DNA of 52,765 bases, the filler included, from Sphacelaria rigidula (lineage: Eukaryota), in the NCBI GenBank assembly GCA_964200075.2. It is 4 parts of 4 records of this genome, joined end to end, with 100 filler letters (N's around TTAATTAATTAA, not from the genome) between each part and the next. Parts side by side here need not be neighbours in the genome. Positions count along the whole stretch, not along the records: positions 26,435 to 39,550 come from CAXNAA020003142.1; 3 more parts are not named here. One strand, 5' to 3'. Below the pieces are notes generated by a model. The model saw only the letters and a program-made list of their open reading frames with translations, had not been told where the DNA came from and searched no databases. Position numbers and translations under genes: made by a program. Positions 13,118-51,196 of the stretch are shown here, in pieces. How positions within the stretch are numbered: position 1 is the first letter of the stretch; each line of letters opens with the position of its first letter.

Positions 13118-13217
13118 NNNNNNNNNNNNNNNNNNNNNNNNNNNNNNNNNNNNNNNNNNNNTTAATTAATTAANNNNNNNNNNNNNNNNNNNNNNNNNNN
13201 NNNNNNNNNNNNNNNNN
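13118..13217. other. Assembly gap with TTAATTAATTAA six-frame-stop linker
   Basis: 100-nt N run with central ttaattaattaa; identical at 26335 and 39551. Confidence 0.97.
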
Positions 13218-19929: not shown

Positions 19930-22900
19930 ATGCGGGAAGAGTAGCGACCTCCCCAATACGGGGACAGTTACGCAGAGAGTGCATCTCGCACTTTGTATAC
20001 AAAATACTTGGAGTACAAGAAGCGTGTGGACCACGCTAACGCAGGGGATGCCGTGCGGCATCAGGTGGTGACAATGGCTCAACAAGGGCCAACTCATGTA
20101 CGGAGAGTGTTCGCTCGTTTGAAACATAATGAGTACTATCACCCCGCCGCAATGGGTTGCGGCGATCAAAAAGCACACTGGGCGTGCGGTGGGCTTCGAG
20201 GTAGATCTGACCCAAACGTCCGCGGTCGTGGCGAAAGCTGTCGCCACGGATTCTGGGGGGAAAACGATGTTGGAGCGAGTGGAGCCCATCCTAGCCAATC
20301 TGGAGGAGTACTTCACGGAAAATCCAATGTGAGACTAGTATATTGTTCCCCCGATGGTAAGTTTATTCCCGGCCCGGCTGCAGTAGTCATCAAGGTTTTG
20401 GTGGAGGGGTTGGCACCTGAAAAATTCAAGCAAGCCGTGCTTATCAAGCTGCAGCACCAAACAGACTGTAAGGCCGACCCATACCTGATGGTGAGCACCG
20501 TCGTGGCCGAAGTCAAGGAGTGGCGGAAAACAGAGGTGTTCGACCAGTCGTCCGCCTCTTCGCCGAAATCTTTGCGCAACCATGGCTCGAAATCGGCCGG
20601 TCGTGCCGCGAGTATTACTTGTCACCGCTGTGGCCAGGTCGGCTATTACGCGCGCGATTGCCCAACGTCTTCCCGTGGAGAGTCTGGGCAGTCTAGTGCC
20701 GCACGCCATCAGCATCGTCAGCAAAAGGGCAAAATACGATGTAATCGTGGTGGCGGCGGGGGATCCTCTGGCGATGGAGGGTCGCAGACGAGCCCTCAGC
20801 AGCAGCCGTAGCAGCAGCAGAGTCAGCAGCAGCAAGGGCAGCGGCGTCAGCATGGGCCTGCCTCTGGGTCCCGTGCCGCCGTAGGTGCTGCTGCTCCGCA
20901 ACAGGCGGTGCAGGTGGGCCCTACTTCTACAGAGTCGAACACTACGCCGGCGTCGGTGGTGGCGCCGACGGCGACACTGGCAGCAGCGCCAGGCGCGACG
21001 CCTGCTGAGGCGCTGGTCGGAGGTCCGCCAAGTGCTTGGTTTGCTGAACCTGCCAGGGCGTCTTTGCCTGCGCAGCTTGCGCAGCCGTGGCGTCAAGTGG
21101 GATTAGCGGCGCATAGGTCGGCGGAAGAAGTTCCCGTGGAGCTTGCCGACAGATACATTCCTGCGGAGTTATGTCTTTCGAATCAACGGCAGGGTGGAGC
21201 CATTATGCTTCAGCCTGTGTTGGATTCTGGCGCTCATTTCACTAGTCTGCCGGTGCAGATGGTTGAGATGGTGGAGCGTCAACTCCCGGGTGTGCCGCTG
21301 CGCATCCCATTTTCGCTCGGGGCGCGGCAGGTAGTCACCGCGTCGGGTCAGCATGTTGCCGTCACGGAGAGTACTGTTCCGTTGCAGTTAGCTTTCAAGA
21401 CTGCTCGGGGGCTGGTGCCGTTGCCTCCGATCTCGTTTGCGATTACGTCAGGGTTGAACGGCGTTGTTCTTCTAGGGCTGCCGACGCTACAGAATCTACG
21501 AGGCGACCCATATGAGTGGTTGAAGGACTCTATCAAGACGCGGATGTCTCCACCTGGTCTGCACGTGGAGACGCCCGCCTTTTTGGGCAGTCGCCGCGTG
21601 AGCTTGTCGGTGGGTGTTTTTCAGGAGGCTGGGGGCAGGTGACCGAGGAGTGGGATGCGGTGGTGGAACGCTTAGTAGAACGCGGCCCGGACATGTTCAT
21701 GGGCCCGGCGGAAGGAGTCCGCTCGGAGGGTTGCGCTGGAGGAGAGCGTGACGAATGCTGTGGGGAAAGGCCTCAGCGTCCCCAAAGCGGAACGCCTGCG
21801 CGGCATCTTGCATCGTCGCGTCAACGCGTTTCGTCGTGCACCGCGGGGTGATCCCCCTGCCCGCGTGGAGCCCATGCGCCTTCAGCTGAAACCTGGGGCA
21901 TCCGCGGTGAAGACCAAGCCGCGGCGGTACGATCCGGTGAAGTCGAGCTGGTTGGCGTCGTGCATGGCGGCTCTTTTGGCGCTTGAGTTGGTAGTCCGGA
22001 ACCTGCAAGTGGTATGGTCCAGTCCGGCGATGACGGTCCTCAAGAAAGACTTGTTCGCCTGGTAAGCGACTACAAGGCCGTAAATGATCAGGTTGAGACG
22101 TCGCCGGGTGTGATGCCTAATCAAGAGTCGGACATGCGTGATCTCTTGAGTGCTCGTCTTTTTGGCAATTTGGATCTCCTTCAAGGTTATTGGCAGATGC
22201 CATCGGCGGAGTAGGTGCAGGAGATTTTCACAATCACGACCCTGTTAGGCTTGTTTACCCCGAAGCGAGTGCCGCAAGGCGTATTGAATGACACGGCATA
22301 TTTTCAAGGTATCATGACAGAACTGCTTGTCGGCTTGAAATACCAGATATAGGTGGACGATGTGTTTTTTTTCGCGGACACGGAAGATGAACGTTTAGAC
22401 ACGCTTGATGCTATCTTGACCCGTTTAGAGAGTATTGGTTTGTTTGCGGCGGGGCACAAATGCACTTTCTTCGCTAGTGAACTCGTATGGTGTGGGAAAG
22501 TGAACTCACACGGAAGCGTATCTCATGACTCTTTTAGATTGCAGGGCTTGTCTGACATGCGGCGCTCGAAGACGGTCGCAGAACTCATACAATTCCTACA
22601 GGCCGCGAATTGGCTGTGTACCTCGTTGCCGCGTATGGCAGAAACCGTAGCTCCCTTGCACTGCTTCTTCGAAGAACTCACGGCGGGTGTTGCGAGGCGG
22701 ACGAAGCGTGTTGCAAAAAACCGCGCTACTCCGCCTGCATCGTGGACGGAGGGCAGGTTGCAGGCGTGGGCGGCAACGAAGGATCTGGCAACTCACGCCG
22801 TGACGCTGTTTCATCCTCGTCCTGATCGTCAGGTGCTAATGTTTCCGGATGCATATGAGTGTCATTGGGGTAGTTTCGTTACGCAGGTGCCTATAGCGAA

Positions 22901-24866
22901 AATGCAAGGACGCCTGCCGGTTGAGGACATGACGCATGAACCGCTGGCTTTCCTCAGTGGTAGTTTTAAGGGTTCGCAGTTGCGTTGGGCCACAATTGAT
23001 AAGGAAGATTTTGCTGTCGTCAGCACTTTTCGTCTTTTGGAGCATCTTTTGTGGGATAGCCTGCACATATTTACGGATCACCGAAATCTCGTGTATATTT
23101 CGACCCGGAAGCGTGCGTTATGTTTGTGTCGAACGCATTGGCACAACGTTTGCAGGGTCAAAAAGCTGTTCTTGGCCAGTAGCGTTACTTAATTTGCCAT
23201 ATTTCGGGTGGCTGTAACGCGTGGAGTGACTTGCTTTCGCGTTGGGTGAATATTCCGGCTTTGTCTGTGCGTGCTGTGGCTGTGCATGGTCCGTGTGAAC
23301 CTGATGACTCGATGCCGTCCAAATCTGTTGTCCGCCAAGCGCAACGAAAATACCTCGGGGCCAAAGATGCGGATGTGCAATCTTTCGAGTTGGACGTTGG
23401 TGCTGCTATCTTGGACAATGAAGGTCTGTTTTGTGTGCATGTGCGTGGCCGAATTTTTGTGGATTCCGAGTGCTGAAGAGCAGTTGCAGGTACGTCTGAT
23501 GACTTGCGCGCACATGCGCGACGCCGAGCATCATGGTGTGGCTGCGACGCTCGTACGCTTGCAAGAGTTTTGTGTCTGGCAGGGTACAGAAACTAATGTG
23601 CGCGAATTTGTTCGCCAGTGTCTTCACTGTGCTGACTCGAGGGCGGGCGACGTTGTTCCCTACCCGCTGGGCGAAACGGTCCATGCGGCCACGCCGAGTG
23701 AAGTCGTTTATTTCGACTTCTTGTACGTGGGCAAGAGTGGCCCGCTAGCTTCCCAAGGTTTGTCGGAGGATGCTGGGTTTCGACACATTTTGGTAATCAT
23801 GGATGAATTGAGCAACTTTGTGGCTCTAGAACCAGTAGCAGTGTGTACTGCTGAATCGACCGCTGCATCTTTGGTGAATTGGTGCAAATCTTTGGGGGTG
23901 CCGCGTGTGTAGGTGAGTGATACCGCCACGCATTTCAAGAATGCGATCTTGGCCCGATTGCGATAGGCGTTGCCCGTTGATCACCAGTTTGCGGTAGCGT
24001 ATTCTCCGTGGTCTAACGGAACGTGCGAACGCATGGTCAAGAAAGTAGTTCGTGCTTTTCGCTCTTTTTTTCTCGAGCAGCGTAGAGCGGTTTCCGAGCG
24101 GGTGGACGTATTGCCGGCGGTGCAATGGGCGCTTAATACAGCGTATCGTCGTCGTTACGATAGTACGCCGTACCACGTGCTGTTTGGTCGTGTCCCTCGG
24201 ACGTCTTTCTCGGTGCTGGCGTCTTCGTCGGTGGGGGAATGGAAGTGTGATGTTCTGGACAATGTTCAAATCAAGAGTGCACTGCAAGGAGTCTTGGACG
24301 CGCAAGAACGTTTCCACGTTCAATTTCAGGAATATGCTGCCGCTGAACGTGCGCGTAGACGTGAGGGGTCCTCGTTGGGACTGGAATTGCCGAATTTTGA
24401 GGTAGGCGGCTATGTATTGTATGCACGCGTGCGTCGTCCGGGTGTTACGCCCAAGTTGATGGCGACGTGGACTTGTCCATAGAGAGTGGTTGGTACTCAC
24501 CACCCGCGCGTGTTTGAGATTCAAAACATTGTTTCGGGTCGTGTTCAGATCGCCCATGCCGCTCGTTTGCGTTTTTATGCAGTCTCGCAGCTAAATGTTC
24601 CGGCTGACGTCAAGGACGTATTCCAGCATGCTTTCAATCAGGGGCAATTTCAGGTGGCTGGTATTGTCCGAGTGGCAGAAGCAGACGATCGTTCGTTGAT
24701 CGTGTTGGTCGACTGTGTTGGTTTTGAAGTTGAGGAGCGTACGTGGGAGCCTTTCAAGGATATTTTTGAGGCCGCTCCAGAATTTCTCACGAAGGATTTG
24801 CGTAAACTGCACGTGGCTCGTGCCGTTGCTGCTCGTATTACAAGTGAGTTTGGTATTCAATTGTGA
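19930..24866 (+). pseudogene. gag-pol of the Gypsy element (many stops and frameshifts)
   Basis: ORF fragments at 19993, 20908, 21748, 22353, 23271, 23970 and 24486 carry consecutive gag, PR, RT, RH, IN and chromo motifs. Confidence 0.9.
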
Positions 24867-25362: not shown

Positions 25363-25428
25363 CCTAACCATAGGGATGTTCAAATTCCGATGCGGTCCTC
25401 TCAGCACGCGGTCCTCTCACGCATTACA
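25363..25428. mobile_element. MITE family C end fragment
   Basis: ...gatgcggtcctctcagcacgcggtcctctcacgcattaca. Confidence 0.75.
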
Positions 25429-26334
25429 CAACCTCTTTGACTCTGCTTCTGGCAGACCCTCTCGACGTAGATACGCCTTGAGCTGGTCTTATTTCTTGCA
25501 AGCTGATCAGGCCTGCAGAATCACCCTGGCTTGATGTCTCAGCCTTTGTTCAATGGACCCAGTAAACCTTTGTTGTAGACTTCTGTTCATTAACGCTAGT
25601 CAGCGGCGCGGACTCCTCCTATGACGGGCACGTAGACTTCCGCATCTGCAGTTAGTTGCTCATGTATCAATCCTAGCTGTTCATTGTTCCAGAGAGCATC
25701 GTCCCTGCTGCTTCTCTCACAGAGGGAATGACTGCTAGCAATCGAGATAAAAACACGCACGGAGTCCACCGGTCATATTCGCAGACCCGCAACCCATCAA
25801 CCAGCGGTGAACATGTCTGCTACACATTGTCCGGACTGCCCACTGGTACCTAACATAGGAAGTAATCATGGACGGAGTCTACAGGACGCAGTAAAGCATA
25901 CCGCCGAACACTACCGAGTGCCGGCACTCTGTCCAGTGTCGTAGCACTGTGCAGTGTTGGAACACCATCACGCGGGACACCATTACGCGGGACCAAAAGG
26001 TGATCGAAGAGGGTGCCTGTGTGTTTGTCCTACTCGGCGTTGTGAAAGAGCAGACTTGTACGTGAAGACGTAGTGGCTGTTAAGCGGTCGTTCAAGTGTA
26101 CCATGTGGATGAAGAGGTGCCAAGGTTGTTGGGAAGTCGAGCTGCGAGCTGGCTAGGTGATCCTTTTTTACTGCTTTTTGACTTCTGTACGCGGAGCAAG
26201 AGGACAAAGTTGCGTGCATTGTCTGGATGACCTTGATTGTGGACTGTTGCAGCGGTGAAGGCATATTTCAGCATATAGCCTCTGCCAGACGATCTGGACA
26301 AGATGGCTATTCAGTGAGGGACTTGTCCAGAATC

Positions 26335-26434
26335 NNNNNNNNNNNNNNNNNNNNNNNNNNNNNNNNNNNNNNNNNNNNTTAATTAATTAANNNNNNNNNN
26401 NNNNNNNNNNNNNNNNNNNNNNNNNNNNNNNNNN
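26335..26434. other. Assembly gap with linker
   Basis: 100-nt N run with ttaattaattaa. Confidence 0.97.
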
Positions 26435-26880
26435 CTAGGAAAATATATGCCAGTCGTCGAAAGGAGGAGGAAGTAGATGGACAGAACTGCCTCTGTGGCG
26501 AAGGGATAGAGGGCAGAAGTCATATAGTGGCAGAATGTGAACTATACTAGGAGGAACAGGACGTGCTAGAGGGGGAAATGCGGGACGTGAACAAATGTGG
26601 CATGAAATCGTTCGATGCATTATTATCCAGTAGGGAGAAAACGATCATAATACTAGGAGATAGATGGTGGCCAGAGACGGCGAAACAGGACGGGGATAAG
26701 ATATGTGAAAATGTTTTGGTGAAATGTATGGAAGAAACGTCATGAGCTGCGGAAGAAACGTAACGTGCGCCGGAATGATGGAGGTGTCTCTATTGGGAGT
26801 AGGAACGGTGCTCCGTCTCAAAAGGGATGCGTGGTCAATGGTCAAATGACTGAGACAAGCAGCAAATGAGTACCCCCCCC
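26435..26880 (+). mobile_element. 3' end of a LINE ORF2 (C-terminal zinc-binding region)
   Basis: Degenerate frame CLCGEGIEGRSHIVAECE...ILGDRWWP...KGCVVNGQ; the C.C...H...C pattern is typical of LINE C-termini. Confidence 0.65.
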
Positions 26881-26957
26881 GCCCCCTCCCTTTGCCGCAC
26901 GTGCGCCGGCTTGACGTCCAACACCGGTTGATTCTCCAGAAAGATAGAAGAGTGCCG

Positions 26958-27194
26958 CTCACCCCGGAAACGGGCTGCCTGAACAACGCCCGAACATGAC
27001 TTTCTTGCAAAGCACCGCGACTGCGGTTCACCAAGTCTTGTAGAGTCCCTCCGGCTTGGTAGTTCAACAGCGTTGTTCATCGTCATGAACTGCCAAGCCA
27101 GAGGGGTTCTACAAGACTTGGTTAATCGCAGTCGCGGTGGTATGCAAGAAAGTGATGTGCGGGCCTTGTACAAGCAGCTCGTTCCCGGGGTGAG
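26958..27194. repeat. Inverted duplication of a kinase exon: hairpin with 109-bp arms and 19-nt loop
   Basis: 26958-27066 is the reverse complement of 27086-27194, ~15 mismatches, no indels. Confidence 0.92.
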
Positions 27195-27226
27195 TACGAG
27201 CATTGCTTGGATGTTTCGAGCATTTC

Positions 27227-27444
27227 TGTAATGCCTGAGAGGATCGCGTGCTTAGGGGACCGCGTCGGAATTTGAACATCCCTATGCTTAGGGTTGGGGT
27301 TCGGGTTAGTGTTGGGGTTAGGGTCCGGGCCGTGGTCCCTGCAGGGACTGGCCCGATTGGTGTTGGAGTGTCGATGCCCGCGATGCCCGAGGTGTTTCTA
27401 ACTACGATGCGGTCCCCCAGCACGCGGTTCTCTCACGCATTACA
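27227..27444. mobile_element. MITE family C (TIR TGTAATGCGTGAGAGGACCGCGTG; internal TTAGGG-like tract)
   Basis: ~40-bp TIRs; other copies at 27746, 29002, 29530, 32660, 34310 and partial 25363. Confidence 0.88.
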
Positions 27445-27745
27445 ATGTCCGCCAACCATTTTTGATCTGTCAGCATATCATGAAAAAGGACAGAACATGG
27501 AGGGTGTTACTGTACTGCAGAAGACGGTAGAGGTACATGTTGGTGTTTCTGTTGCTGCAAGGGGAAATAAGACGCGCAAGGGTGCATGATGCCTACTCCA
27601 TGATATCGTTTTGTGATTCTCAGTTTTAGCACTACGTGGGACTCTTATGGATAGAAACATCTGCTGCGCGTCCAGAAAATATTTTTCACCCTATCGCCGC
27701 CGTGAGTGACAATAATATGAAGCATGACATTACGTTGCCTTCCAT

Positions 27746-27955
27746 TGTAATGCGTGAGCGAATCGCGTGCGTTTTGCATCGCATCGGAGTTCAAACATCC
27801 CATCGTAAGGTTTAGGGTTAGGGTTAGGGCTGGGGTTAGGGTTAGGGGTGTGGTCCCTCCAGAGACTGGCCCGATTGTTTTTGAAACACGTCGATCCTGG
27901 GTTGTTTCGAACTACAATGCGGTCCCCTGAGCACGCGGTCCTCTCACGCATTACA
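27746..27955. mobile_element. MITE family C copy
   Basis: tgtaatgcgtgag...ctcacgcattaca with internal (ttaggg)n. Confidence 0.88.
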
Positions 27956-29001
27956 TCGTCTATCTTGGCGACAAATGTCCTCCACTTTCCATTCCTGATA
28001 TCAGAATACAATTAGCAACACATTCCCCGAAGGCACGGCGATCGCATAACATGCATAAAGAACAGTACAGCGCAAGACTTACTTATATATATATATGTGT
28101 GTGTGTACATATAACGCCTCTCGACGTGATCTCTCCTTTGCATTGACATGACTCTACTACCGGCGGTAGTCGACAAGGGCCTGGACTAATGAGGTGAAGA
28201 TCATGGAGACCCTGAGCCATCCTAGTGTCATCGACCTTGTGGACTCCTTCGAGGTGTGTGCGTGTGCGATGCATACGAGCACCACAGTAGTGCAGGACGT
28301 TGTGAACGTAGCTCTAACCCGCGGTTGGTGAATCCGCAGTCACGCTTGTACGACGAATATAGCGTTGCCGTCAAAGGTGGTCAGCGGAGAGCTCCCGCCG
28401 ATATGTTGGCTGTATTCTCACATGGCTTTTGGATGCATTTTCCAGTATTCTTACGGCCGATATCGCTTCGTGCACTGGGCTTAGACTGGCTCGGTCTCTC
28501 CATAGGAGACACGGTCATGCGTGTTCCCTGTGCCTCTTGGGAGGTTTTGCCTCCACTGCAATCCCTTGTACCTTGGTTGAACGCGCGCCGAGACCGAGGC
28601 TTTCACTCTCTTTCTGACAGCGCACAGGTATTTTGGTCTGTCGACACCCCACTAGAGCACACCACTCTGCCCAACGATGGTAGGCTCGCGTCACAGGAGG
28701 AGTTGATCGGAATAGATATACCATTAGTCGGACTGGATTGCTGATGCACTAGCTCAGCGAGTATCCTGTCCCCTCTCTTTGCCGCACGTGCGCCTGCTTC
28801 ACGTCCAACCCGGGATGATTATTCAGAAACATGGGAAAGAGCCACGACTGTACATTGTGATGAACCACGAAACAGGAGGGAGTGTAGAGGACTTGGTAAA
28901 TCGAAGACGCGGTGGCATCGAAGAGGCTCATGCTCGGGCCTTGTACAGGCAGCTCGTGTCCGGGGTGAGTACGAGCATTGCTTGGATGTTTTGAGCATAT
29001 C

Positions 29002-29217
29002 TGTAATGCGTGAGAGGACTGTGTGCTTAGGGGACGCATAGGAATTTGAACATCTATATGCTTGGGTTTAGGGTGAGGGTTAGGGTTAGTGTTGGGGTTA
29101 GGGTCCGGGGCGTGGTCCCTGCAGGGACTGGCCCGATTGGTGTTGGAAGACGTCGATGCCCGAGGTGTTTCGAACTACGATGCGGTCCCCCAACACGCGG
29201 TCCTCTCCCGCATCACA
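29002..29217. mobile_element. MITE family C copy
   Basis: Duplicate of 27227-27444. Confidence 0.88.
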
Positions 29218-29529
29218 ATGTCCGCCAGCCGTTTTTGATCTGTCATCTTACCATGAAAACGACGAGACATGGAGGGTGTTACTGTACTGCAGAGGACGGT
29301 AGAGTACATGTTGGTGTTTCTGTTGCTGCAAGGGGAAATGAGACGCACAGGGGTGCATGATACCTAATCCACGATATCGTTTTGTGATTCTCATTTTGAG
29401 CACCACGTGGGACTCTTATGGATAGAAGCATCTGCTGCGCATCCAGAAAATAGTTTACGGATTGTTCCCGCCGTAAGTGATAATAATATAGAGTGAGATT
29501 CAACCTTCAGGCGGTACGTCGCCTTCCAT

Positions 29530-29727
29530 TGTAATGCGTGAGCGGACCGCGTGCGTTTTTCACCGCATCGGAGTTCAAACATCCCATGGCAAGGATTAGG
29601 GTTAGGGTTAGGGTTAGGGCCGCAGCTTCTGCAGGGGCCGGTTCTAGTGGTCTTGAAACACGTCGTTCCCAGGGTGTTTTGATCTCCGATGCGGCCCGAA
29701 CAGCACGCGGTCCGCACACACGTTGCA
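29530..29727. mobile_element. MITE family C copy
   Basis: Left TIR intact, (ttaggg)4 inside, degenerate right TIR. Confidence 0.82.
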
Positions 29728-29766
29728 CCATAACTAACTGCAGAAGTCGTCCCAATCCGATTTTAG

Positions 29767-29911
29767 GTGCGCTACTTGCACCAAAGGAGAATCATCCACC
29801 GGGACATTAAACTCTCGAATATGGTGCTCGACTCCAATCACGAGAACTTGAAGATTATCGATTTCGGCCTGAGTGCTGAAATGACTACAGGGCGTCTTCA
29901 GACGCCATGCG
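29767..29911 (+). CDS. Kinase catalytic-loop exon (subdomains VIb-VII)
   Basis: ag|VRYLHQRRIIHRDIKLSNMVLDSNHENLKIIDFGLSAEMTTGRLQTPC|gtgagt. Confidence 0.9.
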
Positions 29912-30479
29912 GTGAGTACGCAGTCCTGTTTCGACGGCGATGAGCGCGACGCAAACATATCATGTGCAGTATACCGCCCCACATACCGTTAAACGTGCCG
30001 CGTGGCCGTCTTCGGTGCTGAGGTTTTGGTGATGTCAACCTCTCGTTTTGCAATATGGTAAGTTCTATTAGAAGTGCAGATGAAGGAGGAAATTCAAGGC
30101 GTGATATTCATTTTTTTAGTACTGGAGGTTGAACTTGTAGCTCAAAGTTTTGAATCACGGTAGTACTTGCAGCGTGCTGTCAAGTGTATTCCCACCTTGC
30201 AAATGTTGCACCGGTCCTACTGTAGCGCCTTGGAGTGCCTTTTTCTCACCATATGAAGCGCTGGGCATCGAACTGTAAAACTTCGTGTAGTGGCTTCGTA
30301 CGGATTTTTCGATGCAGCCATAAGGTCTGAGTTTGCTATACTTTCAGTCCCGCTGCAAATGGCCCTTGAGGTCAGCACAGCGGCGCACGATGCATTCGAG
30401 ACTCAAAACACACATACATATCCACCGCTATTGTGGAGCACGAATATTATCTCGGCATATAAATAGAAACGTCAACGAC

Positions 30480-30908
30480 GATTGATTCATTGATTTGAGG
30501 GATTGATCGATTGATGGTTGTACATTAACAGACCCCACAGGGGTCCAGCCATGGTCACAAGATAGACGTACCCAAGAAAAGCAAAACTGAAACATTAAAG
30601 CGTCGAAGAGCACGCCATAGGAGACTAAGACGTGAAAAAAAAAAAGTAATAATGATTTAATAAGAAAACAGTCGATGGAAGCGAAGCACAGAGATAAATG
30701 GCCGACCTGAACCAAAACAAAAAAAAGAAGAGAGGAGAGAAGAGAGCAAAAAAGGGATAAAAAAATATGGAAAGGAAAACGCTCGAGGGATTCAGGGCAG
30801 CAGCGTAGATACAGACACACACCAGTCGGCATCGCAGAACCACCGACGAAGGGCATAATCAACCGATATGAGCAAACGATATAGATTAAAATTGGCGGCC
30901 TTGACATC
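30480..30908 (-). repeat. Probable 3' UTR fragment of a non-LTR element with an (ATCA)n-like tail
   Basis: T-rich minus strand ending ...caaccatcaatcgatcaatc...aatcaatgaatcaatc; short tandem tails are typical of RTE-type 3' ends. Confidence 0.45.
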
Positions 30909-32659
30909 CCGCCGGGAAGTGAGTGTGCGAGCCTCGCCGCTCAACCCCTCTAGCGCCGCAGGTGTCCAGTTGTGGAATCGCGTGCGTCGAATGTTGAGTA
31001 TTGGCGTATGCCTAGATATTTCTTTATGGTACTACATGCGAGAGGTTTCGGTGAACACCCCTGAGGTAGTTGATGTATTGTGATGTCGTGCCCCGCGAAT
31101 TGTTCTGTTGGCTCATGCTTTTGAACCACCTTTGTCGTACGATAGTCTACACCGAGCACGTTTTTCATCCATTAAGAGTGGATGAAGAAGGAAGTGTGCG
31201 TAGCCTCCCCCCCGAAGCTTGCTCCGCCTTTTTGTTCGATGCCGCCTTGTTTTTCTCTCGGGCTGCGAGTAGCTCCCACGGTCCTGGATCAATGGGCACC
31301 GGTTGTCCAGGAACTAGATGCAGGAAAATTGACTTGTTCATCATCGATGACAAACAGCCTGTTCATGTATGAGTTCAAGCAACCCTTAGCATCCCGCTCG
31401 CACGTGCGTTCTGAACCAACTCTTGCCCACCCTTCCGCCAAAACCTGCAGGAACACCCAACTACAAGGCACCAGAGATGGTGTCACCACTCGTCGGCAGA
31501 GTCGGGTACTGGTTGCCGGTCGATGTCTGGAGTATGGGCATTTGCCTGTACAGGATGATGAGTGGGTGAGTAGGAAAATAAAGTGGTAGAGGGACACGGG
31601 CGTTCGGGTCGGGCATAAAAACAGAGCGAGGCAGGGTGAGCAGGGGTGGGCAACATCGTTTGTGCACAGCGTCGTGGAACGAAAACGTGGATGGGTTTTT
31701 GCCGTTTGTCGTGCTTTTTCAGCCTGAAGTACTGGGCAAAGGTTCCACCACTTGACGTATTGAAGTCAAAGGTTGATTCCTAACATTGTGCTCTGTAATA
31801 TTTGCCTCGCTGCAGGTACGACAGACGGCGTGCGACAACGGTAGAGTGCCCGCGTCCCCGGGGGCGGGCTTGCTATTTTCCGTAGCTTCACACTCACTTA
31901 CCGTTGCACTACTTTGTGTTTGTCTTGTTTTCCAATGGCATGGCGACGCACTAATTCAACGCAGGGCGACTCTCATCACTACTGACAGAATCAACTGAAC
32001 AGTAGTACGCACGGATCTCCCACCAAATGCTCTCCTGCCGCGTATTTTGAACTCCCTATACAACAATGAACACGAGCCTTCTGCGCCGGAGGGTATGGCA
32101 TGGAGTACCCACATAACTTCCATTTGCCTCCGCCGTAAACGAGCGTTGCAGCAGATAAACGTTGGCACCACTGAAACCCTCTCAACGGGTACATAGTATT
32201 CGATGAGACTTGCACATCCTTCATACATGAGCACTCAGAGTTCGCACCGCTTATACCCGTATCCTCCTTCCTTCTGGTCCTGCATCAGCGAGCTACCCTT
32301 CACTGGTTCAAACCGGACATCGTTGAACAGGAGCATTCTCAATGATGAAGCCAAGCCCATAGCGACCCAAAGCTTGGAATTAAACGACCTTATCAAAAGA
32401 GTACTGGAGAAAGACCCCTACGAGAGACCGACTGCTCAGCAGGTGCGATGACAACACAAACACCGCTACCGCGTTGCTAGGCCTGCAGTCAGCATTATGG
32501 TTTACGCCACGCGATACCCGACAATACGTTGAAAAACACCGTCAATACATTGAATGCCGCTTGTTGAACGTGGGACTGCGGTGACACAATTGCCACGTAG
32601 CATACAAGTGCTGTTGATTGGTTTGACGGAGGGCTTCAGCTCGTCTATCATGTACACGT

Positions 32660-32862
32660 TGTAATGCGTGGGAGGACCACGTGCGTTTTGGACCGCATCG
32701 GAGTTTTAGCATCTCTATGGTTCGGGTCAGGGTTAGTGTCAGGGTTAGGATCAGGGGAGCGGTTCAGTAGGGACTGGCTAGAGCGGTCTTGAAAAACGAC
32801 GATCCTGAGGTGTTGAAATTCCGATGCGGTCTGAAACGCACGCGGTCCTCCCCCGCATTACA
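32660..32862. mobile_element. MITE family C copy
   Basis: tgtaatgcgtgggaggacc...ggtcctcccccgcattaca. Confidence 0.85.
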
Positions 32863-33573
32863 AGCTTGTTCTTCTGTATCTTGAATCTCATGTATCATCA
32901 TATGTGTACATCGTGCTGGAATCCAGAAATTGTGGGGTAGACTGTGATATCCCGAAGTCCCCATGCAAACCTTCAGCAGGCCACAGAAGTAATGAGGACC
33001 TTGGCAAATTTCAAGTAAATCTATCACAACTGCAAGGCACGAGACAGGGCATCTCGTGACTGGTGGGAAATATTGGCTGTCGACGGCTGTACCGTTCTTC
33101 GATGATACGTTGCCTTGGCAAACCTCTACGTGGCAGATGCCGCGCGACGTCTTGCGATTATTCCCGTTCTCGTGTTGGTCTACGTTGCTTCAAGGCGAAT
33201 GTACGGGAAGGTAGCGCGAGAAAGCGTTGGTGAAGTGTTCCAAGCCTCGAAGACCATTTAGGATGACGCTCGACAGAAGATGCTCGTGGTACAAGGACTA
33301 AGCTGTTTCTCCGTGTATCACGTTTCGACGACCGGCATTATACTCTTTTCCCGTTTTCTTGGGATGCGTTGTGCCTCTTTCATGGAAATAATCCCCTCTC
33401 TGCCGTACGTAGACGTCATAAAAAAGTATGGTGGGAGATAGATCTGCCTGGGGATTAAGAGGCTCCGAAACAACTACTAATACTCAAACATGGTCTTCAT
33501 TTTAGTGGGAAAGCGAACTTGCAGGGCGCAATCATGCATTCAAACGGACTGGATACGCACCCATTCGTAAACC

Positions 33574-34865
33574 CCTAAAGCATGTTGGGACCGCGTGCTT
33601 TTTGGACCGCATCAGAAATTGAATGCCCCAGTACCGACGTGTCGGGAGGACCGCACGGACCTCATAAACACAGGGACAGGTCTCCCACCGATCCTGGGCC
33701 ACGGATTTATCGAGGCAAGGGTAGCGAAGCCAGGCGAGGTGGCTGGAGCGACACAGCGACGACGTAGTGTTCCTTGAACGAGAGGAGAGTGAGGATATCA
33801 AACCTGTTTAAGCCAGACATCCGTAAGTCACGTCGAAGTCACTTTCGCATGTAAAGTGTAACGGGAAAGAGTTGGCACCAGGGCATTCTGGGGAGGTGTC
33901 GGTGCCTACCACGTTATTATGACCGCATCGACGAGCTGATGCTCGTTGATTAGAGGTACCAGGTGGCGAGACGACCCATCTACTCGGTAGTAACGAGTAC
34001 CAGATGTCGAGACGACCCATCTGCTCCGTACTTGCACGTACTGAAATGTAGTTTGCATGCAGTCTACTTCGTCATTCAAGGCAGCTTCAAGGTAAGCACA
34101 CAAGTCGAGGCCACGGACCTTGCTTTTCCCCTCCGCGGAGATGGCATCGCATCGACTCGGTCTCCACTTGTCTGTTTACCTTGAAGCTGGCTTGAATGGC
34201 AAAGTGGAGCTCATGCAAACCACACGTCAGTGCCCTGAAATGAGTAGCGAGCAGATGGGTCATCTCGGCATGAGGGACCGAGCAATCGGTTCGTCGATGC
34301 GGTCATCATCGTAATGCATGAGGGGACCGCGTGCGTTGGAGACCGCATCAGAATTTAAACACCGCTATGGTTAGATTTAGGGTTAGGGTTGGTGTTGGGG
34401 CTTGGGTCAGGGGCGTGGTCTCTGCAGGGACTGGCCCGATTGGTTTTGAAAAACGTCGATCCTGAGGTGTGTCGAACTACGGTCCGGTCACCTAAGTACG
34501 CGGTCCTCTCACGCGTTACAATGATGATACGGTAGGCGCGGTCACCTCCCTAAATACACTGGTGTCTCCTCTTTTCTTTCACGCCCACATGCGAGAGTGG
34601 CTCCCACGCGAGTTACAGTTCTCTGAATTCCATAGTTTTGAACTCCTCGCTCTCCTCCCGTTCAGAGCACACTGCGTGCGTCGTCGTGTCGCTCCAGTCA
34701 CCTTGCCTGGCTTCGCTACCCCTGGCTTGATAAGCACGTGGACCAGATTTCTCGGGGCGCGGTCCCTGCATGCATGAGATCCGTGCGATCCTCCCGACAC
34801 GTCGGTCCTATGGCGTTCAAATCCCGATGCGGTCTAAAACGCACTCGGTCCTAACACGACTTATA
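33574..34865. mobile_element. Foldback element with ~530-bp inverted arms and family-C-type termini
   Basis: 33574-34112 is the diverged reverse complement of 34162-34865 once the nested MITE is removed (e.g. accgacgtgtcgggagga / tcctcccgacacgtcggt; ttcaaggtaa / ttaccttgaa). Confidence 0.85.
34310..34520. mobile_element. MITE family C copy nested in the foldback element
   Basis: TIRs and ttaggg tract; interrupts the right arm of 33574-34865. Confidence 0.85.
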
Positions 34866-35914
34866 TTCCCACATTGCAAAATGGAGAAAAACTGGGTACG
34901 CTCTGCTTCATGCCCTACGGAGACCACACACACACCCCTGCACATGCCCCGGGCCTAGGTTTTGGACCACCCGTGGTTTCCTGTCAGCTTTGGTGCAATA
35001 GGATAGCGTCAACATCGTCCGCTACTGAAAGAGGTAATGTCATGGATGAGGATACCGGCGGTCAGCGGGGGACGGCGCGGCACGCCTAGGGGAGGAAAAT
35101 GGGGAGAAGAGGAGGAGCCAGGGGGCACTAAGAAACGCGGACGCTGGGATGTCAGGAGTAGAAGAGCCACCACTGTTTTTGTGCCTTGTGTGAACGTGTT
35201 TGGCTGGTATGCCGAAACTCTGCATTCCTTGTTACTCCTGGTGGGCTGGGGCGCGGGAGTGTCGTGGTGAGCGCAAAGGTGTTGTCATTTTGTGTAGCAG
35301 AGCGCTTCCTGTCTAGCTGGAAGGTGTCGGCAGGTGATTGGAGTACATCATCGTTCTCAGGGGACCACTATTAGCGCCCTGCATCGTTCACATGGCAAAT
35401 TATTCACCTGCTCCAAGTATCGGTACCAAGTCCTGGATGTATTAATACGCACAGGGTCTTTCTCCACGCCATACATTTGATCCGTGTAACGTGTGTTCGG
35501 CGATATGACTCGTTGCGAGGTAGCTACGGCCCACGGTGCGTCTCCAGATGATGAGGATTAATTTATTCACGCACACAATAATTACTCATGGTGTATAATG
35601 TTACAAGTATCTGGTTATATGAGGGTCCACTGATGGCCACTGGGGTGCCTGGAAGGTGGGATTACGGACGTTCGGCCGGAAATTTGACGTTGCCAGCGTA
35701 TAGGTTGCAACCAATTGAAGGTTGTAGGGACGTTGAAGGCAGGTGTACCAGTTACGGGCCCGACTGTTTTACGAATCGCAAAAAGGGGGCGGGGGGGGGA
35801 GGAGGGTCTACTAATGATCTTGCATGCCATGCTGGGAGGTGGGGTGGGGGGTGGGGTGGCACATGGCGGTATTTGGGTACTATTTTCTTGATGTTTGTGT
35901 GGCTGTGTGTCACA

Positions 35915-36215
35915 TACAATAGTGTTTTCGTGAGATTGAGAGTGAAGGATACGATTGAGAGTGAAAAGCGCTCACAGAGTGAATGAATCATTCAAGTTCC
36001 GAAATGCCCTGCTACGAGGCTTGAAATGCTTTCTGTAGTAGCGTGCCACTGAGACCCATGATCGAGTAGGATATCGACGTGTAGCTGTAAGTACATGCCA
36101 GTGATGGGGGTAGAGAAAAGCACACACGGATTGAAATAATGGCTAAGTTGAAGCGAATGAACAGGGCCACTCTCAATCCGCGCTCCACTCTCAATCTCAC
36201 GAAAACATCGTTATA
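35915..36215. mobile_element. MITE family B copy (opposite orientation)
   Basis: TIRs gtgttttcgtgagattgagagt / actctcaatctcacgaaaaca with TA at both ends; interior is the reverse complement of 5446-5740. Confidence 0.85.
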
Positions 36216-39200
36216 CGTGAGCTTAGATGGGGTGTATTAATTTCTTGCTCTCAGTGTGTGACTTCTCAGCCTCTTTGGGTTTGGTTTAGGGTCAAGTATA
36301 AAGAGGTAAGGACTCGATTTTTGTGCGCGGGCGATAGAGCAAGCGACTAGTCAACGACGAGTGGCGATCCCTTCAAATATTATGCCCTCTTTCCGGCTGT
36401 ATCAGGCAGCAAGGTGCATGTGGTGCGTGATGGTACTGTGAAACAGTGTAAGTAATAACTCGTGTAACCACTCTTCAACATGTTGGAGGTGGACGATCGA
36501 TTCGGGGAAGGGAGTCTGCATTGGGGTAGACTTCGATAGTATATATAGGGCTGTGTACGAGGTAAAACCGCCTGGAAATGGGTTAACGATCTCGCAGCCA
36601 TGTTTCATGGACACAGACGACTTGGACCAAAATCCGCATATGATATATATCGTGTAAACAAGCCAAAGGGGCCCATCCGCTCAAAACGCTCGGCCAATTT
36701 TTTGTCGATGGTTGAACTTCATGTCTACTAGTTGACTAATTCCTGTCGTGCGGAGATATCGCCATACGACAGTCAAAATATAGCTCCGAACGATATATAT
36801 ATAAATATATATATCGGTGATGATACGATTTTTGGCGTGGACATTCCCGGGGGCACGGGATGTGTATGGATACCCTCCCCGTTACGAAATCCTGCATCTA
36901 TCTGGAGATATGGGGCACATGAGATTCTTTACTGAAATCAATACACCAACAGCAGAGGCACGAAATGCACAAATCTGGGTTTCATATCTCAGTCTCTCAG
37001 GCGAACTTTGAAATTTCATGTGGAGAATCGCTTGTGCACAACGAAATAATCCTTATGATTACGGTTACGGTTACGATTATGATGCTTATGATTATGATTT
37101 TGATGATCATTTTATCAAATCAAATGTATTATTGGCCTAAATGTCTCGCCACTTATTACTGGAATCAAGCAAGTCGTGTGGTTTTGGGGTCCATGAACCG
37201 AATCATCGATCCTTCTCGGAACAGTAATTTGCACTTCCCCAACCACAAGCACGCCCAAGTATGGCCAGAGCGTAACTGTTCTTCCACGGAACAGCATCAC
37301 ATATGCCGATACCCGATTTGTTTTGATAACAAAATGTTTTGAAAATTTGAACAAGAACGGGCGCATGTCACTGCTACCGCCCGTGACATTTACTGTTCGC
37401 GGGCAGAGCCCGACTATCACACCCACAGGTTCTGTCTTCACGTTTCCTTTTGCATGCACGAAAACGCACAGACAATAGCACTGTATTTCCACGGCGCAGC
37501 TCACGTTTCCTGGATTAAGTGTCATTCTTTGCAAGCGCTGGGATCGAACAGAGCGATGTCGCACCATCAATCATTCATGGAACAATAATCCGTGCATAAA
37601 GAATATCTCTTCCGACAGCGAGAGTACACACACACATATCTGTGCAGTATAAAATCAAGATAAGAGCGCAGCGACTGTACACCGACATAAAGGGTCAACA
37701 ACGACACATTTTCTCCAACAGAAAGGAGAGTGTTTTGAGAATCATTTATGGAACAATAACCGATGCATAACAGGAAGCCGGGTTGCCTGCCTGCTGATTT
37801 TGTACTACCAGCTATAGGCTGTTGGTGATGATTCGGCCACCTGTGTAATTTATCTGTCTGTGTCGTTCGTTTCGCTGCCCGTGTGCATGCCATGTTGTGT
37901 GCTGCGCGCGCGATATGATGCGCCGTCTATGTTGTGCAGGGTGCAGTGAAAACTGTATTGGTTGCCGGCGACAGTACCACTCAGACTGCGTACACTCATG
38001 TTACACTGACTAAACAGGCCGCCAATCCAGTACGAAAGTACTTGTAGCCGATTTTTGCCGTGTGTGTACACGTTGACCGGCGCCCGCCCTTCCTGCGCCT
38101 GCTCTTCCTGCGCCCACATTATCTTCCATTACCTTCTTCATGTGTCACCACTTATCGAAACTACACACTTGGCTTGTGGCGTGGTGTGGCTATCCCTCTA
38201 CCGTAGGCAATTGTGTACTGCATGTTCCATCATGTTTCATCATCGCTTGGGTTATGAACACGCCACTGTTAATTTCTCTCCCGTTTCCAACGGAAAGCGA
38301 TCTTCAATACTGGAAAATGTGGTGTCTGCAGCGTGTATGGATTTCGAAACCTTGAACAAACGGGATCCGGAAACGCATTGTACGGACCCCAAATCGGCCC
38401 AAATCGTGGAAGCTCAGATTCGTTTGTCACGATTTGAGAACGGTTTAACACGAATTTGAGCGCAGATCGGTGGAAAATCGAGGTTCCCCGGATCTGTAGC
38501 AACTGATGCTCGTATGTTGACGTTCAGTGATACCCGGGCAACAGGCGTTTGATATTTTTGCAACAACAGCACCAGACAGTCTCGTGACAACACAGACGGT
38601 GCCTGCGAGCGCCGGCTGCTAGAGCAGCTCCGCACGGGGTTTGACAAGAGGATAAGAAGTGTTGACGCGTACCCTGCGGTGATGGTAAGATTATATGCTG
38701 CACTGTGCTGCTGTATGTATCATCATAGCGAACGGTACTGTAACTATCCATCTATCATAGGCACTCTGCTCTCGCGGTTGTTGCAGGGTGATGAGTGACA
38801 CTGCACTCGTGAACTCGTCTTGCCGCACACTGTGCACTATCCATGCAATACCGACTGTACCATCATATATTACCACACGGCATTATCGTGTACTGTGATT
38901 GTGCAGTGTACTGCATCGCATCATACCTTAGGGTACCACGGTACGACGCTGCTCTTAAAGGATGATTCCCTGCCCGCCTGTCCTTCGGCTTCATTGTGAT
39001 ACCACACCCGTCGAGAAAATGACCGTTCGTGTACAGGACAAGTTCAACAAATCTATGAAGCCATGAAGCCATACAGGGGTACACACAAATCTGAGTTTCA
39101 CGAATCTGGGTCCCCCCGATTTGGCACAGATTCGGGTCCCGCCAGATTCGGGATTGGCTGCGATTATAAATTGGTCTCATTCCTCGGAATTGTGTTGGGT

Positions 39201-39550
39201 TGTGTGGTAAGCCTTTGCACGTGCCCCTGTCTACCAGAAATGTATATTCCCCTTCAATGTGTCCGAAAATCCTTTTTCAAAACAGGACTTAAGGAAGTGC
39301 AGAAGAAGCACTTCCTTAAGTCTTCTCTAAAAAAAGAATTTCTGGGCGAATTTCGGGGATATTTCTGGGAGGGCGGGTGGTATCGCAGCGACCACTCAGC
39401 GATCGTGTAGGCACGTCGGCAAAACCCTGCACAGTTCCAATTTTTGTATTTTTGAAAATTCCATTTTGTTATTTAATTCCAAATAACAGCCGATCCTAAT
39501 TTTTGGGGTTGAAACAAAATATGAGGTTGAAGTCCCATCCCTTCATTGCA

Positions 39551-39650
39551 NNNNNNNNNNNNNNNNNNNNNNNNNNNNNNNNNNNNNNNNNNNNTTAATT
39601 AATTAANNNNNNNNNNNNNNNNNNNNNNNNNNNNNNNNNNNNNNNNNNNN
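39551..39650. other. Assembly gap with linker
   Basis: 100-nt N run with ttaattaattaa. Confidence 0.97.
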
Positions 39651-45275: not shown

Positions 45276-47848
45276 TGGCCCAGTATGTTGCAAACACTAC
45301 TTTGGGAATTTCGTGTATCAATTCCTGTCGGCTCCCCTACTTCACAGCATATATGGCGAATCGCCTGCGAGAAAGAGTCTACGACATCAACGCAGTTTTC
45401 ACATGGCCGGAGTTGCCCCACCGATTAACATACCGCCGGTCGATATATGTAGTGCACGATACGAAAAGCACCGTGCGCCGCAATTCACGCTATTGTGCGA
45501 CATCACCCCATCCAACGGTGTCTATTCTTTTTCGTAGGAGGAGGCGAAACGTCTTCCCTTTGTTGCGGCAGAGGAAAGGTCAGACTCTGGCCACTACCGG
45601 GCAGCCCACCACCGGAACTGGCTGAGCTCGTGTCTCCGGCGAACCCTCTCTCGCGATTTTTCCTCACCAACATTAGAAGAATGAACACCGCCTTCGCCTT
45701 TTCATCCTGCGGAGGTGCGAGCGACTCCCTTCAATTACGCCAGTTCCAAACCAACGGTCCATACAATTTTGTTATACAAGGGCAGTTTCATCACTACCTC
45801 AGCAGCGTCCAGTCGCTGCGCCGAGACTCCACCCCCCGCTACAGTCAGATCTACTTCTACTCCGGCGAAGATTAGCAACTGGGGTATCGCCTCAACAATG
45901 TTTGGGAGCTTCGAGCGGGCGACCTTCAACGCGCGGCGCAAAGGGTGCAGAGAGAATCTCTCGTGAACACAGATATGCCAGAATGTACCTGTCTGCGTCG
46001 GACAGACTACAGCGGGCTGGTGGTGCCGTGAGACCAGGGGGGCGTCTCTTTTTGCGCGCCGAACAAACACCGGATCCCCGGCGCTACAACGCGACGGCCG
46101 CTCCACGTGAGGTTGCCGCCGTGATCCCCGACGCTCACGACCGACATTACTACATTCGCGATATCGTCATCCAAGACTTGCAAGGTAATTTGAGGAGGAT
46201 TTGCGAGAATCATCCCTCTGTAGATGCCCTGTCGTACCCCCATCCTCGACCCTATGGGTGAGTGCGGGTACCACAATGAGATCCCCCAGCACAGCGACGA
46301 TCCTCTGCGTCTGCTGCAAGTTAATGCGCTGGGGGAAAGACATCCGCGAGGCGGCGCCGCCGCCGGCGGGGCGTGGCGTATGGTCTCCAAGCGAGAATTT
46401 ACTGCATACCGCCTCACGTTCAGAACACAACAGCGGGCGGCCGCAGTCGGCGCACCTCCCCTACCGCTCTCCAGCATGCTTCACGTCGGCGGCAGGCTAT
46501 TCCAGCAGTGGGTAGTTGACTATGGATGTCAGATTGAGCACGAAAGATTGCAGTATCAACGAAACAACCAGGAAGCCCCTCGCTGTCACGAGCGCCGAGG
46601 GCTCAGCGAGGCCCTGCAGCAAGGCAATCACCCCAGCGATGTTGGCCGGGCTGTCACCGTCCTCTCCCCCAGTTTAACCGGTGGCCCCCGGGACATGACC
46701 CAGCGTTATCTTGACGCCATCGCCATCGTCCGTCACTTAGGGAAGCCGGACCTCTTTGCAACCTTTTCGTGCAACTCAAGTGGGTTAGGGGTAAGTACTC
46801 TTGGATTCAGCACTTGGTTTTTTTATGTCGTCGACGGGTGGGCTTATGGGTTGTTGACTGTTTACTACATTGTTTTTGCTAATCATTTCATTAAACCGAG
46901 CGAGTGCCTGATTGGCCAGTGGACTCTTCGAAGTATTTTCAACACGATGTTGGCTACGATACAAAATCCAAGATTACATCACCGTTCGTTCATTTCTGTC
47001 TGCCGCGACTCCTTGCAGGCTGGCCAGAGATCACAGAGGCATTGCTCGAAGGACGGTACCCCAGCGATCGCCCCAGCATCGTCTCTCGCGTTTTTCGTCT
47101 GAAGCTGAGAGCTTCAGGAGATGATATCCTGAAAAAAGGGTACTTGGGCAGAGCCGTCGCCTGGGTTAGAGTGATCGAGGTGCATCTCCCGAGACTTTTC
47201 GAAGGAAATAGTTGGCGTCAGCTCCTATATTCCCCGCCTCTCCCCCTCCTGCACGCAGAAAATCCGTGTGCTGTGTGATCACCGTTGACTGTGCACCCAG
47301 CGACGCCGTCGTTGATGACTTTTGCCCACGTGCACTCTCTGCCACGTTATTTGTCGCACCTGTCACGTCTGCCCAGTCCCAGAAACACGGTCTACCCCAT
47401 GCCCACATGTTGATCATGTTCGCACCGGAGGACAAGCCAACTCCGGATGAATACGACAAGTACATTTCCGCCGAGTTACCCGACATCCGCCAGCAACCGC
47501 CAATTTTCCACATCATGGCCTCTTCCTACATCCATGGTCCTTGCCGCCCTTCGTGCATGAAAGACGGCCAGTGTTCAAAGCGATTCCCCCGACAACTCCC
47601 GAAGCAGACTACCGCGGCGGAAGACGCGTACGTCGAGTATCGCCGCCGCCAGCCCCCTTATGACTCCATACTGGATGTCTCTGTCCATGTAGGTGAAAAC
47701 CGGCCCAAAACGTACCGGGTGGAACCTCAGGGTGTGTTCCTCAAAGGCCGGTGGGTGGACGACACGTGGGTGGTTCCATACAACCCTGCTCTAACACTGA
47801 AGTATAACGCTCACATCAACGTTGAGCTCTGCGCTTCGGTGAAGAGTT

Positions 47849-47920
47849 AAGTACAGCTACAAGTACGTCTACAAGTACAGCTACAAGTACGTCTACAAGT
47901 ACAGCTACAAGTACGTCTAC
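47849..47920 (+). repeat. Perfect 3x24-bp tandem repeat (KYSYKYVY) in the Helitron Rep
   Basis: aagtacagctacaagtacgtctac x3. Confidence 0.95.
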
Positions 47921-50689: not shown

Positions 50690-51196
50690 ATGCCCTCACC
50701 GCGTGGAGGTAGGGGAGGGCAGCGCGGGGCAGGAGGGCGGCGTGGGGCACCACGTGCCGCGGGAATGGGAGCAAGAGCAGGGAGGGGATCCACACCGGGG
50801 AGAGGAGCAATGGCGGGAAGGGGGCAGACACAAGGGCAACAACGAAGGCCTGGACGTCTTCGCGTTTGGTTTTGTCAAGACATGAACCCCGCGAGTCGGA
50901 CGTTGGAGGCATGGTTGTCCATGTGCCAGCCGGGGGAAACATACGCCTGGTTGTACATGCCCATCATAACTGCTACGCTGAACTGCAAAGGAGGGGTCTG
51001 CCAGGGTCATGACGATTACGAAAGGCCAGCGGGGTTCGAAAACATCGTAAACAGCTACCGTCAGGCGTTTTCCCTCAACGATAACCTCCGCTCTCGAGTT
51101 GACGCATACGACCAGCGTTTTGCCCATGCCATACTGGCCGCCGACGCCTCACTACTGCCGACGAGGATTGATGAGCTAGGATTGGATGGTCTTTGA
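50690..51196 (+). CDS. Unknown 168-aa ORF with RGG-rich N-terminus inside the Helitron
   Basis: ATG 50690 MPSPRGGRGGQRGAGGRRG... then a globular-looking region RLRVWFCQD...ELGLDGL*; overlaps the helicase stop. Confidence 0.5.
   Translation: MPSPRGGRGGQRGAGGRRGAPRAAGMGARAGRGSTPGRGAMAGRGQTQGQQRRPGRLRVWFCQDMNPASRTLEAWLSMCQPGETYAWLYMPIITATLNCKGGVCQGHDDYERPAGFENIVNSYRQAFSLNDNLRSRVDAYDQRFAHAILAADASLLPTRIDELGLDGL

Follow-up and report, generated by a model that had tools for sequence, protein, structure and literature searches.

In or upstream of a Ser/Thr kinase gene of the brown alga Sphacelaria rigidula, a redundant copy of one kinase exon contains an inverted copy of its own 3' part, forming a 237-nt foldback (26958-27194). 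We consider it likely, with a probability of roughly 60%, that this foldback is a structural relic without a selected function, namely a neutral hairpin produced by a template switch in a duplicated pseudo-exon. The window, meaning the whole stretch of DNA that was analyzed (52,765 bases), consists of four pieces of about 13,117 bases, which need not adjoin one another in the genome and are kept apart by three spacers of the same sequence (44 N, TTAATTAATTAA, 44 N) at 13118-13217, 26335-26434, and 39551-39650. The foldback lies about 520 bases into piece 3 (26435-39550).

Structure of the Foldback

The foldback and the pseudo-exon that contains it are made up of the following features.

26958..27066, + strand: left arm, exon V's 3' part plus GTGAG in reverse complement, antisense to the kinase on the + strand
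27067..27085, + strand: loop of 19 nt, the 3' 12 nt of which are original exon sequence and align with block B at 28849-28860
27086..27194, + strand: right arm, 3' part of the original exon in sense orientation (to 27189), followed by the first five intron bases, GTGAG
26940..27189, + strand: pseudo-exon A, 250 nt compared with 138 nt in block B, with the CAG acceptor and GTGAGT donor kept

Counted base by base, the two arms form Watson-Crick pairs at 94 of 109 positions (86%), with 15 mismatches, no indels, and a longest perfect run of 15. Five of the mismatches are G:U-compatible on the + strand and three on the - strand. No longer inverted repeat within 600 nt occurs anywhere in the 52,765-base window, and no other copy of this one was found there. 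When 26940-27210 is folded as RNA, the + strand reaches -189.1 kcal/mol (z -19.7) as a single unbranched stem and the - strand -178.4 kcal/mol (z -21.3), with none of 200 shuffles equaling the value in either case. An earlier note on this DNA had described 109-bp arms, a 19-nt loop, about 15 mismatches of which about five were G:U, and no indels; the recount returned the same coordinates and counts, and the fold that it had proposed as a check does give a very stable stem.

The arms are copies of a kinase exon. Including its GTGAG, the right arm is collinear with the exon at 28827-28964 at an offset of 1775, and 83 of its 109 bases are identical to block B at 28861-28969. The left arm, once reverse-complemented, is identical to the block B exon at 84 of 109 positions and to the right arm at 94 of 109. 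A tblastn search with P0001, a partial protein of the same species, matches both arms, the left one at 27070-26960 on the - strand (65% over 37 aa). The right-arm ORF has a weak Pkinase match (E 0.085, profile positions 69-112), and a search of the public protein collection with the right-arm peptide gave no match. Because the right arm is collinear in register with exon V and with the flanks of that exon, it represents the exon proper rather than an element that was inserted. Between the common flanks, block A has 117 nt (26957-27073) and block B has 5 nt (28844-28848), and removal of 26958-27066 yields an in-frame exon (KDRRVPTALFIVMN...) that is collinear with B. Since block B is without the insert, the insert in A is taken to be derived, with the parental state read from this paralogous block. 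In the exon frame, pseudo-exon A contains four stops, the first after 19 codons. Both the collinearity and the reverse-complement match thus agree with the claim that an antisense copy of the exon, GTGAG donor included, sits within the 5' part of the duplicated exon.

The Host Kinase Gene and Its Duplicated Block

The exons around the foldback, delimited by stop-to-stop ORFs, Pfam, and tblastn, read as one gene for a Ser/Thr kinase, which lies on the + strand in piece 3.

28170..28253, + strand: exon IV, subdomains III-IV, between blocks A and B; matches P0001 residues 1-28 at 68%
28827..28964, + strand: functional exon V (KHGKEPRLYIVMNHETGGSVEDLVNRRRGGIEEAHARALYRQLVSG), 138 nt, subdomain V, phase 0 at both ends
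29767..29911, + strand: exon VI with HRDIKLSN and DFG, subdomains VIb-VII; Pkinase 1.9e-15; 95% to P0001 by BLASTP
31451..31565, + strand: exon with GTPNYKAPE, subdomains VIII-IX; Pkinase 6.9e-8
end near 32445, + strand: subdomain-XI kinase exon; Pkinase 5.7e-4

The matches of the exons at 29767-29911 and 31451-31565 to Pkinase (PF00069) are above the cut-off, and the remaining exons are weak when scanned singly. Throughout the visible exons IV-XI, the frames are open, the splice sites have the consensus, and the HRD, DFG, and APE motifs are kept. The exons carrying the Gly-loop and VAIK were not found by tblastn in the window; tblastn with the first 400 residues of each of six kinase homologues found no subdomain I-II exon in 26435-28170, a distance of about 1.7 kb to the end of the piece. 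The earlier suggestion that the hairpin might be a cause of this kinase's decay is not supported, as exons IV-XI are intact with their catalytic motifs and only the redundant copy is broken. The exon at 28827-28964 had been described as the uninterrupted paralogous exon; its position holds, but it is the functional exon of the same gene and not part of a second one.

P0001 has 132 aa, is annotated as "unnamed protein product, partial [Sphacelaria rigidula]," and is the one close relative that the exon VI ORF retrieved from the public protein collection. Against the window, tblastn puts it at 93% identity for exon VI, 68% for exon IV, and 54% for exon V, and on account of these values it is regarded as a paralogue. 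When compared with longer proteins, P0001 retrieves only generic kinases at 43% identity or less, and the host kinase family is apparently fast-evolving and lineage-restricted.

The foldback belongs to a duplicated segment, the two copies of which, together with the neighboring repeats, are arranged as follows.

26435..26872, + strand: 3' end of a retroelement-like repeat; ORF with a C-terminal Cys/His knuckle (zf-RVT E 0.16, below the cut-off)
26883..27955, + strand: block A, with pseudo-exon V, about 770 nt of the intron that comes after it, and two MITEs of about 215 nt (27227-27444 and 27746-27955)
28770..29727, + strand: block B, inside the working gene, with exon V, the intron downstream of it, and two MITEs (29002-29217 and 29515-29727)
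32659-32863, 34307-34523, and 25363-25431 (partial): further MITE copies

Block A lies upstream of exon IV, so its copy of exon V is both out of order and redundant. Block A may be situated in an intron or upstream of the gene. Its right end coincides with the end of a MITE, while its left end abuts the 3' end of the repeat at 26435-26872. The summed contig depth over that repeat is in the millions in run X1, compared with about 55-115 over non-repeat parts, and the repeat is also heavily covered in a run guessed to be RNA. The MITE family has a length of about 215 nt and 50-nt terminal inverted repeats (TGTAATGCGTGAG...), and at least three copies contain telomere-like TTAGGG runs (27812-27847, 29596-29619, and 34377-34388). 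The presence of a MITE copy in piece 2 indicates that pieces 2 and 3 are of one genome.

Between blocks A and B, exon V is 75% identical, with a dS of 0.44-0.58 (over 34-39 codons), and is more diverged than the flanking non-coding DNA. A similar mosaic is seen between the window gene and P0001, with exon VI nearly identical and exons IV and V far apart. It suggests either that the exons of the N-lobe and hinge evolve fast or that there has been patchy conversion among paralogues. The excess divergence of exon V between A and B is left unexplained by the template-switch model.

Probable Origin by Template Switching and Neutral Decay

The following course of events would account for the layout. 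A kinase-gene piece of about 1 kb, comprising exon V and the downstream intron with two MITEs, would have been duplicated, with the new copy placed upstream of exon IV. Together with this duplication or shortly afterwards, a template switch would have taken place during replication: at the exon donor, the growing strand would have moved over to the other strand, used it as template for 109 nt in the reverse direction, and then switched back to a point 19 nt upstream of the segment that it had copied. In this way, the 3' part of the exon would have been inserted in antisense into the 5' part, and none of the flanking sequence would have been lost. The redundant exon would have been broken by a frame shift and stops, and the arms would then have drifted apart at the neutral rate. 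We infer the mechanism, its timing, and the lack of function from this arrangement and from the divergence of the copies. Template switches are described in PMC10710096, as far as the available text goes, as creating inverted repeats in one step, with thresholds of at least 15 nt and at least 80% identity to the nearby opposite strand; the foldback has 109 nt at 86%, 19 nt from its source. No clear junction microhomology is left after this much divergence, so the switch is deduced from the layout only. Fold-back priming at a double-strand break was also considered and was set aside by reasoning only, as it predicts an open-ended, hairpin-capped copy, whereas the 109-nt insert is bounded and leads back to the original strand.

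The arms differ at 15 of 109 sites (13.8%, K2P 0.153), and non-exon DNA differs between blocks A and B at 115 of 806 aligned sites (14.3%), with identity ranging from 79% to 95% by segment. The near equality suggests, within the limits of only 109 sites, that the arms and the block duplication are of similar age and that the arms have stayed no more similar to each other than neutral DNA would have. As the inversion is in block A, it cannot be older than that block, which places it at the block duplication or soon after. The equal divergence of arms and blocks also means that a single complex event of replication may have produced both the block copy and the inversion. Among 32 variable sites in the arms, 17 are common to both arms against B, a pattern that would fit a later inversion, conversion from arm to arm, or fast change in B.

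At a paired site, every transition produces a wobble in the RNA of one strand but an A:C mismatch in that of the other. The eight transition mismatches are split 5:3 between the + and - strands, near the even division to be expected if there were no selection, which indicates that the RNA of neither strand has been favored. The dN/dS between the arms is 0.83, which, together with the stops in pseudo-exon A, speaks against coding constraint.

Logan contigs from four public runs, aligned on 26435-33000, add evidence from present-day variation. The right arm is polymorphic in these contigs (27118-27214), in which three or more haplotypes can be told apart at 27159, 27173, and 27183; the only contig of X1 and X3 there differs from the window at all three positions. 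Two of the variants, T at 27159 and G at 27173, are the same letter as in the left arm and the block B exon; they therefore represent the ancestral paired state, and it is the window that has the pair-breaking changes. The third variant, A at 27183, breaks a pair. Read in this way, the sequences indicate that new mutations are still eroding the stem, and all of the sequence tests that were run fit neutral decay, with no sign of selection for pairing. Run X6, guessed to be RNA, has contigs on several kinase exons and none at 27159, 27173, or 27183; being assembled contigs, they are uninformative on expression of the hairpin.

The hairpin is a clean natural case of a local inverted duplication, probably by template switching, that would have built a stem of 109 bp within a gene in a single step. 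The stem has persisted through about 14% divergence without evident selection, and it can serve as a null case for judging candidate proto-miRNAs when only their sequence is at hand.

Potential for Small RNA Production

An alternative possibility is that the foldback is a young hpRNA or proto-miRNA locus. Its + strand transcript, either the kinase pre-mRNA or read-through from the upstream repeat, would be processed by Dicer into small RNAs of about 21 nt, and those of the left arm, being antisense to exon V, would dampen the host kinase or its paralogues. We regard this reading as possible but doubtful. It draws on the long, near-perfect stem, which has 99 of 109 pairs on the + strand when G:U is included, and on the orientation of the foldback, which is that of the host gene. 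Targets would also be at hand: among 89 windows of 21 nt along the left arm, four have two mismatches or fewer to exon V and 19 have three or fewer (minimum two), and there is at least one paralogue, P0001. Precedent is found in the available text of PMC10710096, in which template-switch miRNAs are enriched in sense-strand introns and sense-intron hairpins of primates have turned into miRNAs.

The setting in brown algae gives this reading both support and difficulty. According to the main texts of PMC4513859 and PMC5381526, brown-algal miRNA foldbacks have means of 170 and 183 nt, and 75% of the loci are in genes, mostly in sense-strand introns, which bears out the statement of the earlier note that brown-algal miRNAs are often long intronic foldbacks. 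The same main texts (Tarver 2015; Cock 2017) found no evidence of an origin from protein-coding genes and trace these miRNAs mainly to genomic hairpins. As no brown-algal miRNA derived from a protein-coding gene is reported there, inverted duplication of a target gene would be atypical for the lineage. Moreover, the neutral divergence of the arms, the 5:3 split of the G:U-compatible sites, and the pair-breaking variants argue against selection for pairing, and with no exon visible further upstream, both an intronic position and co-transcription with the kinase are only putative. At gathering score, Rfam has no match to the foldback or to anything else in 26435-39550. A literature search returned no small-RNA study of Sphacelaria, the words "small RNA" being mentioned together with it only in a lncRNA method.

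A 109-bp stem also favors heterogeneous siRNAs over a precise miRNA. If the foldback is transcribed with the host gene from the + strand, the 237-nt stem may be cut by Dicer into mixed siRNAs instead of one miRNA, and its stability would make it a good Dicer substrate whether or not it has been selected. On these grounds, small-RNA output of any kind from the foldback is somewhat improbable, and a canonical miRNA is very unlikely. A more specific version, in which a gene-derived hpRNA locus has been caught young, having been made by a template switch inside the transcription unit of the host kinase and yielding antisense siRNAs against exon V, appears improbable as well. If this were true, it would be the first brown-algal case in which inverted duplication of a target gene led to small RNAs, and each round of transcription would produce antisense siRNAs against exon V in a self-limiting feedback. 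More generally, if small RNAs are made, brown algae, in which miRNAs evolved independently, would also build hairpin loci from their own genes, and the foldback would be a dated example of the first step of hairpin-locus formation.

Mobile Elements, Assembly, and the Rest of the Window

It is much less plausible that the foldback is a transposon or MITE that resembles the exon by chance, or part of a gene that a mobile element has captured. Mobile DNA is certainly close by, with four MITE copies in blocks A and B, the repeated retroelement end at 26435-26872, a MITE end as the right end of the duplicated block, and a second foldback in the same piece, described below, that looks like a dispersed repeat. 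In contrast, the right arm is collinear in register with exon V and with the sequence on either side of it, the window has no further copy, and the contig depth is far from that of a repeat: 108 over the right arm in X1 and 21.6 in X3, where non-repeat parts have about 55-115 and 7-15, respectively. At about one to two times the non-repeat level, the right arm should be present in one or two copies. Mobile DNA may account for the duplication of the block, but not for the local inversion.

Fold-back chimeras occur in long-read data, and the three positions at which the right arm departs from the X1 and X3 contig could be taken to favor an inversion made by such a read or by a mis-join, yet this explanation, which the earlier note had raised as a threat to its reading, is extremely unlikely, as a technical fold-back would be a perfect palindrome and the junctions are bridged by contigs from two studies, one from X1 that matches 26856-27058 exactly across the left junction and one from X4, a different study, that spans the loop (27030-27201) with four differences. 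Since X1 may be the sample behind the assembly, X4 is the independent support. Taken together, the bridging contigs, the depth, and arms that are only 86% alike rule out both a technical fold-back and a repeat family.

A second long foldback is found at 33985-34290, with arms of about 125 nt, a folding energy of -164 kcal/mol, and a z of -14.8. An ORF across arm and loop has two short relatives in a library of 1.8 billion proteins, P0035 (51% over nearly the whole length) and P0036, and has no Pfam match. As the relatives cover arm and loop and there is no Pfam match, the possibility that this is a second exon fold-back was rejected. It is probably a dispersed foldback repeat, and it therefore gives no support to a recurring process of exon inversion. 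In piece 2, ORFs at 22353-23912 match RT RNase H-like (2e-12) and integrase zinc-binding (4e-8) domains and represent the remnant of an LTR-retrotransposon pol. In piece 4, ORFs at 46224-50712 that match Helitron_like_N (9e-22), PIF1 helicase (3e-42), and helicase C-terminal domains make up a Helitron transposase gene, which is distributed over several frames. Pattern scans of metagenomes for related DNA gave a single match, a contig of 68% GC (L001) that has only 26 nt in common with the window and was judged a chance match.

Comparison With Known Systems

Like duplicated pseudo-exons or "poison" exons, pseudo-exon A is a redundant copy with intact splice signals and premature stops. It differs from them in being a subdomain-V copy that is placed upstream of exon IV and has an inverted insert.

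In plants, proto-miRNA and hpRNA loci are said to arise by inverted duplication of target genes, as Allen et al. reportedly described in 2004. The foldback resembles such loci in that the homology of its arms to a coding exon extends over their whole length, beyond a 21-nt duplex, and in that one arm is antisense to a gene family. Unlike those loci, it lies inside or beside its own source gene and not at a separate locus, and it is known here from its sequence alone. It also occurs in a brown alga, a group for which the main texts of PMC4513859 and PMC5381526 report no such route.

The miRNA loci of Ectocarpus and Saccharina share with it a long foldback that is sense to the host gene and probably intronic. 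At 237 nt, the foldback is longer than either of the means given for brown-algal loci in those main texts, and whereas the loci described there are without similarity to protein-coding genes or transposons, its arms are a kinase exon.

In comparison with template-switch mutations (PMC10710096; PMC8794818), the source is an exon and not anonymous intron DNA, and the change is only presumed to have taken a single step. As in the available text of those studies, an inverted copy lies a few nucleotides from its source and forms a ready stem-loop, (probably) on the sense strand of a gene, and at 109 nt the copied fragment is well above the 15-nt minimum used there. The unmutated paralogous block B would stand here for the state before the mutation.
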